A DNA stretch of 47,180 nt from the sequence record JF770475, one strand, 5' to 3'. Origin of the DNA: Escherichia phage phiEB49. Made by a program: the position numbers and the translations under genes. The notes beneath the pieces were generated by a model. The model was not told the DNA's origin, searched no databases, and worked only from the letters and a program-made list of their open reading frames with translations. Of the stretch, positions 587 through 46,110 are shown piece after piece; position 1 is the stretch's first letter, and every line of letters starts with the position of its first letter.

Positions 587-632
587 AATAGCACTTTTTG
601 CTAATGACCGCTCAGTCCTGATTGGGTATAGT
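587..632 (+). promoter_or_regulatory. dyad-motif promoter (TAGCA-N5-TGCTA, then TATAGT)
   Basis: Dyad core 589-603, 23-nt spacer, TATAGT 627-632, leader with GAGGAG SD before ATG 661. Confidence 0.5.
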
Positions 633-660
633 CATCACATCAACAGCGAGGAGATATAAA

Positions 661-879
661 ATGAAATCGATTATTATCAACAACGAAATCAAATTTGACG
701 AAGATGCATTGAGCCTGGCTGATATGGGCTATGAGATTGGTGAAGGGGTTGAAGTTTTTGAGCTTGGTGGAGATTACTTTATTGATGCAAAGCAAAATGT
801 TGTTATTGACGGCATTGTAGCCATTTACGAAGGTGAAGAGGTTTACGTAACAAAAGAAGAAATCGAGGTATTAGCATGA
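661..879 (+). CDS. hypothetical early protein (73 aa)
   Basis: ORF track 622..879 trimmed to ATG 661 preceded by GAGGAG SD; stop overlaps next start (ATGA). Confidence 0.5.
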   Translation: MKSIIINNEIKFDEDALSLADMGYEIGEGVEVFELGGDYFIDAKQNVVIDGIVAIYEGEEVYVTKEEIEVLA

Positions 880-1115
880 AGATTCGCTGCACTAATGTTA
901 TTCAAAGCACAGACAAGAAAGTATTAACACCATTCGTAAAAGGCTCTGTATACGACGCTGAGCAGTTAATCATTAACGGTAAGGCAATCCCGAACGAGTG
1001 GTTGATTAATGGCGCTGAGCGACCGCACAAGCACGATTCTGGATGGATTGCTATCGCTGGCTGGAAGGTTGGAATGTTTATACCTGGAATCGCAACTTTT
1101 GACGAGGTGAAATGA
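876..1115 (+). CDS. hypothetical protein (79 aa)
   Basis: ORF track; start overlaps upstream stop. Confidence 0.45.
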   Translation: MKIRCTNVIQSTDKKVLTPFVKGSVYDAEQLIINGKAIPNEWLINGAERPHKHDSGWIAIAGWKVGMFIPGIATFDEVK

Positions 1116-1268
1116 ATGCTAAAGCCATCTGATTTGAATTATTACGATCTGGAAACCATAGCGAAGTACAGCGGCAAAGGCTGGCCTGTTGGTGACTACT
1201 TTAAGGAAGACCTGATAGAGAGCTTTCAGGTTGTCCAGGAAGCAATTACAAAAGCAGCAAAGAAATAG
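1116..1268 (+). CDS. small hypothetical protein (50 aa)
   Basis: ATG immediately after upstream TGA; below ORF-track cutoff; stop lies inside next dyad motif. Confidence 0.3.
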   Translation: MLKPSDLNYYDLETIAKYSGKGWPVGDYFKEDLIESFQVVQEAITKAAKK

Positions 1269-1308
1269 CACTAATTGCTAAAGCACTTACAGAAATTTGA
1301 TGTATATT
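1264..1308 (+). promoter_or_regulatory. dyad-motif promoter
   Basis: TAGCA-ctaat-TGCTA 1266-1280, 22-nt spacer, TATATT 1303-1308, leader AACGAGAGGA before ATG 1338. Confidence 0.5.
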
Positions 1309-1337
1309 TATTTCACACCAAACGAGAGGATATAAAC

Positions 1338-1727
1338 ATGGCAACTACCATTACTAAGAACTGGGTGAGCAGCGATAACAAATTATTTAAAGCTCGCGTT
1401 AAGTTTGTTGATGAATTTGTTAATGGCGTAGTCGAGAAGGTGGGATATGAACAAATAAAGCTTAATGGGAAGTGGGTACAGAAGCCAAAGGGAGGGAGAT
1501 ACATTAATACAAAGACACTGCTTTGCACCAAGGTTGACCACAGCAATCCACTCAAAAAATCATTTACTGAGGGGAAGCGTTATCAGATCGCCATGCACGC
1601 TGGATTAGGTCGTAACGCTGGCTATATCTACGACAATGAAGGTGACGGCTGGCAGCTAACTAGAGACGATGAAGTTGGCTATGATGTTGGTTTTGGCATG
1701 TATAAATTTGAAGCTCAATATAAGTAA
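1338..1727 (+). CDS. hypothetical protein (129 aa)
   Basis: ORF track 1275..1727 trimmed to ATG 1338 with SD GAGAGGA. Confidence 0.5.
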   Translation: MATTITKNWVSSDNKLFKARVKFVDEFVNGVVEKVGYEQIKLNGKWVQKPKGGRYINTKTLLCTKVDHSNPLKKSFTEGKRYQIAMHAGLGRNAGYIYDNEGDGWQLTRDDEVGYDVGFGMYKFEAQYK

Positions 1728-1772
1728 ATAGCACTTTTTGTTAATGACACTACCCGCTCCGGCGGGTATATT
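1727..1772 (+). promoter_or_regulatory. dyad-motif promoter (variant TAGCA-N5-TGTTA) with hairpin in spacer
   Basis: Core 1729-1743; spacer holds hairpin CCCGC-tcc-GCGGG; TATATT 1767-1772; leader CATCGATAACAACGAGAGAG before ATG 1805. Confidence 0.5.
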
Positions 1773-1804
1773 TATATCCATCGATAACAACGAGAGAGAA
1801 TAAG

Positions 1805-44977: not shown

Positions 44978-45077
44978 TGATACTTTTTGTTATAACTTTA
45001 ACAATCTCATATATAGCAAGTGCAAGAAAAAGCGATGCTAAAGGGTATTCCGCGATAGTTTTAATTAGCCCTGTCAT
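44973..45077 (-). CDS. small hydrophobic peptide (34 aa)
   Basis: MTGLIKTIAEYPLASLFLALAIYEIVKVITKSIK; ATGA-coupled to upstream ORF. Confidence 0.25.
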   Translation of the reverse strand: MTGLIKTIAEYPLASLFLALAIYEIVKVITKSIK

Positions 45078-45202
45078 TTCTTCTCCTCGCGCTCGCGCCA
45101 CATGTTCATCAACTCAAAGTATGCCATTGCCTCATCGCCGTCCTTTGCCTCATCCATCATCTTCTTGCACCACTCAGAAGGATTCATTTCCTTCTTCTTC
45201 AT
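45074..45202 (-). CDS. small acidic protein (42 aa)
   Basis: MKKKEMNPSEW...; below ORF-track cutoff. Confidence 0.25.
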   Translation of the reverse strand: MKKKEMNPSEWCKKMMDEAKDGDEAMAYFELMNMWREREEKK

Positions 45203-45249
45203 AATCAGGTCCATCACTACCTTTGCCTCATCTATTTTCGATAAAGTAA

Positions 45250-45293
45250 TAATATCGCATCCTTGCGATTAATGTTTAGCAATTCTTGCTATT
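45250..45293 (-). promoter_or_regulatory. dyad-motif promoter
   Basis: Core 45277-45291 (TAGCA-attct-TGCTA) overlapping upstream stop; weak -10 near 45251. Confidence 0.4.
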
Positions 45294-45540
45294 TGCTGAA
45301 ATAAACATATCCAAGCTCATCCCGCTGCTTTCGAAGCTCAACAGCCTTATTAAGCGACTCAATGGCGTCATTAAGGTCTGTTAGATAGTCCTTATGCCCT
45401 CGCAAACCAGTGCAAAGCATCTTTTTAATTGCATGCTGAATTGCTGGGTCAGTTACGCAAAATGCATCAAGAACTCGATATACATCAACTGTTACTTCAG
45501 TTCCATCGAGGCCGATAATCTCTCGGTTGTACTTACTCAT
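45289..45540 (-). CDS. hypothetical protein (83 aa)
   Basis: ORF track 45289..45588 trimmed to ATG 45540. Confidence 0.45.
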   Translation of the reverse strand: MSKYNREIIGLDGTEVTVDVYRVLDAFCVTDPAIQHAIKKMLCTGLRGHKDYLTDLNDAIESLNKAVELRKQRDELGYVYFSK

Positions 45541-45676
45541 AATCTTCACCCTCATTAACAATAATAAGACCAAGACAATCGCTATCACATGCAGTTAAAT
45601 TTCCAAACTTTTTGTGGAACTCAACGCATTCGCTGATTGTCGTAAATTCATATTGATTTTCAACTTTGTTATTCAT
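45533..45676 (-). CDS. small Cys-containing protein (47 aa)
   Basis: ATGA-coupled to downstream gene; below ORF-track cutoff. Confidence 0.25.
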   Translation of the reverse strand: MNNKVENQYEFTTISECVEFHKKFGNLTACDSDCLGLIIVNEGEDYE

Positions 45677-45794
45677 ATCTCAATCCTCGTTATCGTGCCG
45701 CCATGCGTCGCCTGCATCAACATGGCGTATCTCTCGTCTATATAATGCAGTAGCATATCCATACCCCTGCTGCTGAACTTGTGCTCGTATATGG

Positions 45795-46034
45795 TCACTT
45801 GTATTGGCTAGACAGTTGGCAACCTGATAGCGCTGTGCAAATCTGCTCGTATCGGCTCCATGCGGTATCGGTATCCCATGGCAGCTCATCTACTTCATCG
45901 AACTCTTGGTTGCGAATCTGATTTAGGGCCTCTGCGATGACGCCTGAATCCTGGAACATTCCTTTTGAGTCGAAGTACTGAAGTGCTACTTTCAGTGCAA
46001 ATGCTTGCTCTTCTGACAGGTTAATGGTAATCAT
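45795..46034 (-). CDS. hypothetical protein (79 aa)
   Basis: ORF track; preceded by dyad promoter and conserved leader. Confidence 0.45.
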   Translation of the reverse strand: MITINLSEEQAFALKVALQYFDSKGMFQDSGVIAEALNQIRNQEFDEVDELPWDTDTAWSRYEQICTALSGCQLSSQYK

Positions 46035-46065
46035 GTTAACTTCCTCTCGTTTGGTTGATAGGGTA

Positions 46066-46110
46066 ATAATAGCTGACTACCCGATTTATTGTTTAGCAAT
46101 TAGTGCTATT
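46066..46110 (-). promoter_or_regulatory. dyad-motif promoter
   Basis: Core 46094-46108; minus TATTAT 46066-46071; leader CCAAACGAGAGGAAG. Confidence 0.5.

Follow-up and report, generated by a model that had tools for sequence, protein, structure and literature searches.

An oriented intergenic repeat of Escherichia phage phiEB49 matches the host marbox and may mark a set of class II promoters

Phage TLS carries 18 intergenic 21-nucleotide (nt) repeats with the consensus aaATAGCACnnnTTGnTAAAA, co-oriented with transcription and located ∼76 nt before start codons; the same repeats are present in T1, Rtp and Rogue1 according to the TLS authors (German et al. 2024, PMC11447400). The function of these repeats was left as a question, with stoperators, enhancer sites and UP elements named as ideas, and only three sigma-70-like promoters were found in the TLS genome (PMC11447400). 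Here we consider a repeat of this type, further called the box, in Escherichia phage phiEB49 (record JF770475). The window, i.e. the whole analyzed stretch of 47,180 nt, spans a complete-length genome of Drexlerviridae, from the Rogue1/AKS96 group; nucleotide identity to this group is 84-87% across about two thirds of the window length. The window contains 20 copies of the box, co-oriented with transcription and situated 66-84 nt before start codons.

A second described system is the host marbox, an asymmetric, degenerate site for the AraC-family activators of stress and antibiotic resistance MarA, SoxS and Rob (RamA in Klebsiella and Salmonella); its consensus is given as AYnGCACnnWnnRYYAAAY (quoted in PMC3709825) or as gcannwwntgnnaaa (PMC12052159). 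A class II marbox promoter has a forward marbox overlapping the -35 element, with the centre at -36 to -55; marboxes centred from -35 to +25, in either orientation, are treated as overlapping the core promoter (PMC12052159). Proteins of MarA type bind as monomers with two different helix-turn-helix (HTH) units, one helix reading CGTG and the other TTT; the cryo-electron microscopy work on RamA places the centre of the micF marbox near -41, with CACT-7X-AAA directed toward the promoter (PMC8811837).

We propose that the phage repeats are composite cassettes (marbox, terminator hairpin, -10 hexamer, conserved leader) which would be activated by host MarA/SoxS/Rob/RamA; judging from the sequence, we give this reading a probability of roughly 0.55. 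As far as a limited literature search shows, it has not been reported that the box is an oriented element rather than a true dyad and that it has marbox identity.

The box, its orientation and its match to the marbox

Exact copies of TAGCANNNNNTGCTA occur in the window 10 times, against 0.03 expected from shuffles; with up to one mismatch allowed, the count is 21 against 2.27 expected. Four of the 20 oriented copies face the + strand (15-mer starts at 589, 1266, 1729 and 19729) and 16 face the - strand (5557, 7050, 8485, 10881, 12435, 17122, 19355, 26279, 27986, 32928, 35433, 40580, 42696, 44961, 45277 and 46094). Written in gene direction, the copies compose an oriented element, aaA-TAGCAC-(G/T)WW-TTG-(C/T)-TAAA, and every copy that has a -10 and a gene downstream reads GCAC...AAA toward that gene. 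The genes behind boxes are small early genes, the helicase, Erf and Rha genes, and four inserted HNH genes of the structural module. In at least 12 copies, as read from the sequence, the upstream gene ends in the box (TAG at positions 1-3, TAA at 14-16, or a shared A at position 0).

Related copies were collected from 71 IMG/VR loci with a neighbouring HTH gene, from AKS96, from T1 and from the window itself, 340 unique copies altogether. Position frequencies of the box were computed with one half fixed and the other half left free. In the left half the conserved positions are A0 (0.88-0.97), G3 (0.92), C4 (0.92) and C6 (0.78); in the right half they are T10 (0.97), T11 (0.90), G12 (0.96) and A15-17 (0.84-0.90). 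Degenerate positions are 1 (T or C), 8-9 (A or T) and 13 (C at 0.52-0.55, T at 0.34-0.37). Conservation is thus asymmetric: G3 (0.92) faces the variable C13, C6 stands opposite T10, and no symmetric partner exists for A0, A16 or A17. With unequal half-sites and an orientation fixed relative to the -10, the box does not look like a symmetric operator of a dimeric HTH protein; its 5+5 symmetry arises largely because the marbox consensus itself runs Y-n-G-C-A ... T-G-Y-Y-A.

The phage box agrees with the marbox at every specified position, the degenerate ones included. Exact matches to GCANNWWNTGNNAAA (the consensus of PMC12052159) number 15 in the window against 1.10 expected, and 13 of them are the repeats; for AYNGCACNNWNNRYYAAAY (the consensus of PMC3709825), with no more than one mismatch, there are 17 against 1.03 expected, and 16 are the repeats. 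One copy, ATAGCACTAATTGCTAAAC (46066..46109), has 0 mismatches to either published consensus. Among the 266 unique related copies that are linked to a promoter, 243 match the marbox 15-mer exactly and 237 are within one mismatch of the 19-mer.

The comparison was also made in the opposite direction, with a matrix of 105 unique phage boxes (95th percentile of scores in shuffled 3-kb sequence, 5.0). In the mar and micF regions of MG1655 (3.0 and 3.5 kb) the only scores above 6 were those of the true marboxes, 13.2 for mar and 10.4 for micF. This strict matrix did not detect the weak host marboxes of fumC, inaA, sodA and nfo; the degenerate consensus gave candidate marboxes at fumC, inaA and sodA and none at nfo.

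Spacing, counted between the 15-mer end and a [T/C]AnnnT hexamer, connects the box with a predicted promoter. A -10 hexamer (TATAGT, TATATT, TATTAT, TACAAT and similar) stands 21-23 nt past the 15-mer in 18 of the 20 window copies, and at 22 nt after the 19355 copy; the spacer is 22 nt long in 12 copies (plus the 19355 copy), 23 nt in five and 21 nt in one, and the 12435 copy is the only one in the window without a -10 at this distance. For the 340 unique related copies the spacer is exactly 22 nt in 214 cases and 21-23 nt in 266. If the start is presumed to be 7-8 nt past the -10 hexamer, the box is centred near -40/-41. The -10 is followed by a conserved CATCGAAACGA, a strong Shine-Dalgarno sequence and the start codon.

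Host promoters show the same geometry. In MG1655 micF, 22 nt separate the 15-mer equivalent from the -10 TAGAAT, and the annotated RNA start is 8 nt past this hexamer; the 15-mer-to-(-10) distance is 22 nt for inaA, 22 nt for sodA and 21 nt for fumC. The phage spacing (mode 22) is within a base pair of these four host promoters, which are commonly cited as class II marbox promoters. At the level of sequence, therefore, the phage elements have in common with this class the consensus, the asymmetry together with forward orientation, and the overlap with the -35 at a fixed distance from the -10. For canonical -35/-10 promoters the window shows no enrichment (45 versus 42.2 in shuffles).

The distribution of the box follows the phage family. 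T1 has 21 boxes; two more distant phages sharing the terminase lineage have no box, with one consensus match each, which is the background level. Among the IMG/VR matches listed, loci with multiple boxes were found on contigs of 27.9-53.4 kb only, mostly 42-53 kb, and none of these loci appeared among the failures, the only outcome reported, of the -10 test; single box matches on listed contigs of other sizes were mostly without a -10.

Some further matches were seen outside the set of repeats. A perfect classical marbox match (ATGGCACAAATGGTTAAAC) at 24442-24460 on the - strand, in the start codon region of the gene for a 1142-residue tail protein, is probably a chance match in coding sequence. 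A single exact AATAGCACTTTTTGCTAAAT is present in two groups of IMG/VR contigs (L077, L120, L129 and L139; L084, L091, L102 and L104) of 9-52 kb, mostly 20-52 kb; the flanks are unlike the Drexlerviridae cassette, with no -10 at 22 nt, and temperate phages with ordinary marboxes of host type, or with Lrp sites, may be the source of these copies. In AKS96, features 7280-7320 and 22079-22113 were annotated as promoters of the form TTGACA(N29)TATAAT and TTGACA(N23)TATAAT; depositors of related genomes had thus already noticed the odd -35/-10 spacing, with the box itself unrecognised.

Proposed promoter cassettes, spacer hairpins and neighbouring features

The cassettes of the window are listed below, with the box, the spacer to the -10 and the -10 hexamer; coordinates of genes and open reading frames (ORFs) are added where relevant.

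588..632, + strand: box ATAGCACTTTTTGCTAATG, 23-nt spacer, -10 TATAGT; start codon at about 661
1265..1308, + strand: box ATAGCACTAATTGCTAAAG, 22 nt, TATATT; TAG of the box is the stop of ORF 1116-1268; gene from 1338
1728..1772, + strand: box ATAGCACTTTTTGTTAATG, 23 nt with hairpin CCCGC-TCCG-GCGGG, TATATT; DUF3987 helicase gene from 1805
5529..5572, - strand: box ACAGCACTAATTGCTAAAA, 22 nt, TATATT; -10 flanked by arms GATGG/CCATC
7022..7065, - strand: box ATAGCACTTTTTGTTAAAA, 22 nt with hairpin CGCCA-ATGA-TGGCG, TATAGT; TAG is the stop of 7062-7319; gene 6783-6986
8457..8500, - strand: box ATAGCACGAATTGCTAAAG, 22 nt, TATTAT; TAA is the stop of 8484-8873; 9-bp arms GATGAAGTG/CACTTCATC around the -10
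10854..10896, - strand: box ATAGCATTTTTTGTTAAAC, 21 nt, TGtTATTAT; helicase gene 8873-10816
12420..12450, + strand: tail-fibre gene promoter, extended -10 TGgTATACT (12420-12428), 6 nt, reversed box 12432-12450; gene from 12476
17094..17137, - strand: box ACAGCACGAATAGCTAAAA, 22 nt, TATAGT, arms TGAGGTA/TACCTCA around the -10; TAA is the stop of the exoVIII gene 17121-18089; Erf gene 16418-17065
19327..19370, - strand: ATAGCACGAATAATCAAAA with degenerate right half, 22 nt, TATAGT; Rha-like gene 18655-19284
19728..19772, + strand: box ATAGCACGATTTGCTAAAG, 23 nt, TGcTATAGT; lipoprotein gene (ORF 19738-20043, start at about 19813)
26250..26294, - strand: box ATAGCACGAATTGCTAAAG, 23 nt, TACAGT; inserted 121-residue gene 25855-26220
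27958..28001, - strand: box ATAGCACTTTTTGTTAAAG, 22 nt with hairpin AAGCCAA..TTGGCTT, TGaTACAAT; HNH-like gene 27450-27929
32900..32943, - strand: box ATAGCACTTTTTGTTAAAG, 22 nt with terminator-like GCCCC-TCCT-GGGGC and T run, TGtTATTAT; HNH-like gene 32390-32872
35404..35448, - strand: box ATAGCACGATTTGCTAATG, 23 nt with AGCACCC-TTCG-GGGTGCT, TGcTATTTT; HNH-like gene 34853-35377; adjoins the stop of the major capsid gene
40552..40595, - strand: box ATAGCACGAATTACTAAAG, 22 nt with CGCCA-AGGA-TGGCG, TATATT; TAG is the stop of the large terminase gene 40592-42154; the downstream gene is the 68-residue gene 40316-40522
42668..42711, - strand: box ATAGCACTAATTGTCAAAA, 22 nt, TGaTATCAT; TAG is the small terminase stop; HNH-like gene 42154-42642, then large terminase
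44933..44976, - strand: box ATAGCACGAATTGCTAAGA, 22 nt, TGaTATGAT; -10 enclosed by arms GGGGTA/TACCCC
45249..45292, - strand: box ATAGCAAGAATTGCTAAAC, 22 nt with TCGCA-AGGA-TGCGA, TATTAT; TAG is the stop of 45289-45588
46066..46109, - strand: box ATAGCACTAATTGCTAAAC, 22 nt, TATTAT, arms GGGTA/TACCC; TAG is the stop of 46106-46648; gene 45795-46034

Many spacers carry a hairpin. A stem of at least 5 bp, its 3' arm abutting the -10, was found in 69% of 236 unique copies versus 22% in shuffles, and the mean folding energy of 145 unique 22-nt spacers is -6.6 kcal/mol versus -2.1 kcal/mol in shuffles. The number of distinct stems is 77, indicating that structure, not sequence, is selected. In a second class of hairpins the arms flank the -10 (GGGGTA...TACCCC; GATGAAGTG...CACTTCATC), with a frequency of 27.5% versus 13.7% in partner-swapped controls. 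Both classes are located upstream of the predicted start, and so they should be present in read-through transcripts only. The annotation of T1 names the spacer hairpins rho-independent terminators; from our analysis they may be read as terminators or 3'-end stabilisers packed in a promoter spacer that is free in sequence.

The initial annotation, which had described a dyad recurring across the genome before early genes and before inserted genes of the structural module, some copies overlapping stop codons and several spacers holding GC-rich hairpins, was borne out in all these points; its range of 19-23 nt for the distance to the -10 can be narrowed to 21-23 nt. It had also seen in the dyad the geometry of a class II activator site rather than a sigma-70 -35 box, and one regulon covering the genome: the fixed distance to good -10 hexamers supports the former, with the centre near -40/-41, and the latter is supported as well. 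The motif search in related Drexlerviridae that it had suggested yielded the 340 unique copies described above.

Two boxes have a different geometry. The reversed box 12432-12450, with its consensus on the - strand, occupies about +1 to +18 of the tail-fibre promoter; this arrangement was found in 12 unique relatives with a 6-nt gap, and in 12 others with a 12-nt gap and the box just before the Shine-Dalgarno sequence. This is a repression geometry, in which a bound marbox protein would block the promoter. The divergent HTH gene (10901-11383) also has the box of 10854..10896 in its leader, where the box follows a + strand TATAAT; T1 shows this arrangement too, and the box would be a similar case of repression.

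The four free-standing genes for HNH-like homing endonucleases in the structural module (27450-27929, 32390-32872, 34853-35377 and 42154-42642; called from sequence and from HNH annotations of relatives) have each a box cassette of their own, and two of the four share a common N-terminal sequence (repeat D6). Another repeated module stands before late genes of the - strand, including the portal gene, at 27053-27095, 32884-32926 and 40127-40169. Read on the - strand, it consists of a strong terminator hairpin with a T run followed directly by ATTGGAGAAAT..ATG; there is no promoter between, and late genes therefore seem to depend on terminator read-through.

Two AT-rich non-coding modules with (TAA)n, at 257-344 and 19574-19661 (+ strand), are 77% identical over 90 nt; they extend to the boxes at 588 and 19728, each being ∼240-330 nt upstream of a rightward box promoter. 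On the - strand each module has a sigma-70-like promoter TTTAGA-17-TAT(T/A)(A/T)T (292..264; 19609..19581), and these look like box-independent immediate-early promoters of two leftward early units. Just upstream of the first rightward box, the region 468-590 holds short repeats ATCATTGC(A/T) at 473, 503 and 550 and several TGCAA/TTGCA motifs; among other things, the cluster might represent an operator array, an origin or a site related to pac. A tandem 73-nt duplication (3364-3436 and 3468-3540, 79% identity), with a short ORF start in each unit, follows the DUF3987 helicase gene.

Candidate readers of the box

On balance, a site that has the host consensus, the orientation rule and the spacing makes host proteins the simplest readers. 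The start sites, the binding protein and the choice between activation and repression are what we infer from sequence. The cassette would be built as follows. It would open with the stop of the upstream gene, in many cases contained in the box, and continue with the 18-20-bp oriented box A-TAGCAC-kww-TTG-y-TAAA at about -50 to -33; an 18-bp gap, usually with a GC-rich hairpin, would lead to the -10 hexamer and to the probable start, the A of CATC, and the unit would close with a leader that is conserved and A/C-rich (AUCGAAACGA), a strong Shine-Dalgarno sequence and ATG. A host activator on the box would touch region 4 of sigma-70 and the C-terminal domain of the alpha subunit, thus recruiting host RNA polymerase to promoters that lack a -35. 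The spacer hairpin would act on upstream transcripts only, as a terminator, an attenuator or a 3'-end stabiliser of the upstream gene, while the reversed tail-fibre box and the box in the HTH leader would repress by steric hindrance.

Several points weigh against activation by the host proteins. The phage box conserves A2 and T10, two positions left free in the marbox consensus, so that a different or additional reader is possible, and a remote, unrecognised marbox binder may be encoded by the phage. Among the 19 -10 hexamers tabulated for the window, seven are preceded by TGn and could fire without an activator. Cells that are not under stress contain little MarA or SoxS, and T1-like phages plate efficiently on laboratory cultures grown without stress. 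In the classical T1-resistant mutants the mutations lie in fhuA and tonB rather than in rob, mar or sox, and we know of no genetics that ties rob, mar or sox to T1 growth. Rob without inducer is reportedly sequestered in non-functional aggregates (PMC12052159), and activation by proteins of MarA type is modest, ∼2-4 fold (PMC8811837). No mapped 5' ends or transcription starts were found in the literature for any Drexlerviridae.

The rival that survives best, which we still consider unlikely, is a phage-encoded activator: the HTH regulator (10901-11383) binding as a dimer, or a conserved immediate-early protein such as the DUF7174 protein (46648-47163). Acting from -41, such a protein would be an activator, and at a box placed after the -10 it would be a repressor, with likeness to the marbox coming from convergence or from competition with host proteins. 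The HTH gene (phrog_2856) is indeed family-wide: its homologues were found in 823 records, all of Drexlerviridae, with no match reported outside the family at E <= 1e-3. Both outgroup phages tested have neither this gene nor the box. It is always divergent from the helicase gene with a box between, a classic layout for autoregulation, and the box is quasi-palindromic, with A2 and T10 conserved beyond the marbox consensus. Against this, the recognition helix differs among subfamilies (RQAVEE, NSLLTI, HQTIQQ, IQVVQQ, NQTVQG) while the box is invariant, and the asymmetric, oriented conservation of the box misfits a symmetric dimer. The predicted HTH is the least conserved part of the regulator (homologues L002-L072 and L075); near-invariant are the basic N-terminal ∼45 residues (DKRxLNGNNGTxRxxDKKxRKRPTGYYVLKDEVRAGL) and the C-terminal CRPDLxFDxNGK. 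The gene is located between the helicase and primase genes, which may indicate a role in replication rather than in transcription.

The DUF7174 gene is the first after a box-free sigma-70-like promoter, and T1 has a weak homologue, orf77, at the same position; its model (pLDDT, the predicted local distance difference test, 79) has no significant structural match in PDB and no AraC-like fold. For the Rha-like protein, the annotation of T1 lists no Rha or anti-repressor product, with 21 boxes in that genome. A hidden Markov model of MarA, SoxS and the N-terminal domain of Rob found nothing among all ORFs of the window and T1 (best E-value 0.07, for an ORF without a counterpart among annotated T1 genes), and Pfam scans of the non-structural ORFs of the window found no AraC-type HTH; a phage-encoded MarA homologue was rejected on these scans. 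A PDB sequence search with three candidate proteins gave nothing significant; from sequence, a 111-residue protein has the look of a single winged helix and a 129-residue protein has no HTH-like pattern. A private phage factor, moreover, would give no reason for the host consensus, the orientation rule and the 22-nt spacing to occur together.

The initial annotation had assigned the regulon to a phage-specific dimeric protein and named the HTH and Rha-like proteins as candidates for testing. In this part it was not supported: dimer binding disagrees with asymmetric conservation, fixed orientation and the monomeric binding of marbox proteins, the specificity for the phage is probably wrong as the box equals the host MarA/SoxS/Rob marbox, and the two proteins are weak candidates on the grounds given above.

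Host RNA polymerase alone could read the box as a UP-like or displaced -35-like element (TTGnTA), with no activator involved. This is improbable. The idea of UP elements was raised for these repeats by the TLS authors (PMC11447400). TTG is the best-conserved part of the right half, and seven -10 hexamers have TGn, both in agreement with the polymerase acting alone; on the other hand, TTGnTA at 22 nt from the -10 is 5 bp past the sigma-70 optimum. Conserved G/C positions are absent from UP elements, which are A/T tracts, whereas in the box it is GCAC that is conserved most strongly. Extrusion of the hairpin would leave a spacer of only 4-6 bp, and cruciform extrusion that would move TTGnTA to 17 bp from the -10 was rejected since the arithmetic fails.

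About equally improbable, if not slightly more so, is that the repeats serve mainly as recombination or roadblock elements, i.e. shuffling sites similar to the promoter early stem-loop (PeSL) elements of T4-type phages or stoperators of L5 type. Cassettes do flank non-homologous small genes and the four inserted HNH genes, promoter-terminator cassettes that mediate shuffling have a precedent in the PeSLs of T4-type phages (PMC2839356, PMC4122927), and stoperators were mentioned by the TLS authors (PMC11447400). The link to the -10 (266 of 340 copies at 21-23 nt) and co-orientation with genes are, however, features of promoters; recombination is likely a by-product rather than an alternative, and a repressor is not expected in a virulent phage.

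A host Lrp site is very improbable: the flanks TAGCA...TGCTA fit YAGHA...TDCTR of the SELEX (systematic evolution of ligands by exponential enrichment) consensus yAGhAwATTwTdCTr, confirmed in PMC5554404, but the centre mismatches it at 2-4 positions, the fit is much weaker than that to the marbox, and orientation, C6, the AAA tail and the fixed 22-nt distance are left unexplained.

Other candidates were tried and rejected. A sigma-54 promoter (TGGCAC-N5-TTGCW), in which the GG and GC elements are spaced by exactly 10 bp and the start is ∼12 nt past the GC, would require GG where the box has AG, TTGC is 2 bp closer to GCAC, and the conserved -10 at 22 nt would be without a role. Look-alikes of sigma-32, sigma-28 and sigma-E sites (CCCCAT after some -10 hexamers, TAAAG in the box) are, by reading the sequences, at wrong distances. 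The sites of SlyA, OxyR, Fis and CRP and the TTGC repeats of cII type each disagree with the box in spacing or in key bases. An RNA hairpin of boxB type formed by the dyad was dismissed because variant copies break the pairing without compensation, indicating that the sequence of the box is selected and not its structure.

If the proposed activation by host proteins is extended to the whole family, it might be that in all Drexlerviridae, including T1 and the Klebsiella weberviruses used in therapy, most genes are expressed from ∼20 near-consensus class II marbox promoters driven by MarA/SoxS/Rob/RamA. Phage development would then be tied to the resistance state of the host, and replicating phage DNA would titrate the activators, which could silence the mar/sox/rob response and free the tail-fibre promoter late. 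This extension is more tentative than the reading of the cassettes, and we hold it at slightly less than even odds.

The marbox reading turns an acknowledged question on the repeat of T1-like phages into direct tests. If true, a classic family of virulent phages relies on host activators best known for antibiotic resistance. One could speculate that clinical Klebsiella or E. coli over-expressing RamA or MarA might express such phages better in phage therapy, and that salicylate, bile salts or redox drugs as inducers might modulate infection. It would also explain the scarcity of sigma-70 promoters found in these genomes and would provide an annotation rule for ∼20 promoters per genome.

Comparison with known systems

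Lambda cI at PRM, Mu Mor and C, and T4 MotA/AsiA act at promoters with a good -10 and no usable -35, where a protein site at the -35 position allows contact with sigma region 4. These activators are phage-encoded and work as dimers or by sigma remodelling; in contrast, the phage cassette carries the site of a monomeric activator of the host, for which no homologue was found in the phage.

Similarity to the TLS-type repeat extends to sequence (aaATAGCACnnnTTGnTAAAA), copy number (18-21), orientation along transcription and the distance of ∼70-80 nt to start codons; unlike the present analysis, the TLS paper made no link to a -10 at fixed 22 nt, to the marbox or to MarA/SoxS/Rob (PMC11447400). 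PeSLs of T4-type phages (PMC2839356, PMC4122927) are likewise short repeated intergenic units, joining a promoter with a GC-rich stem-loop terminator and tied to small or orphan genes and mobile genes. The cassette, a repeated intergenic unit of promoter and stable stem-loop, is thus of PeSL type by functional analogy, without sequence homology. A PeSL carries a full sigma-70 consensus promoter that is A/T-rich upstream, whereas in the phage cassette the marbox replaces the -35 and the stem-loop is inside the spacer.

The class II marbox promoters of E. coli (micF, inaA, sodA and fumC; lpxC P2, lpxL P1 and rfaY P1) are alike in the consensus, the forward orientation, the -35 overlapped or replaced, the centre near -41 and the 21-22 nt from the 15-mer to the -10. 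Marbox sites of E. coli are degenerate and scattered, while ∼20 near-consensus copies occur in one virulent genome of 47 kb. The phage cassettes differ from the host promoters also in the hairpin embedded in the spacer and in the conserved downstream leader.

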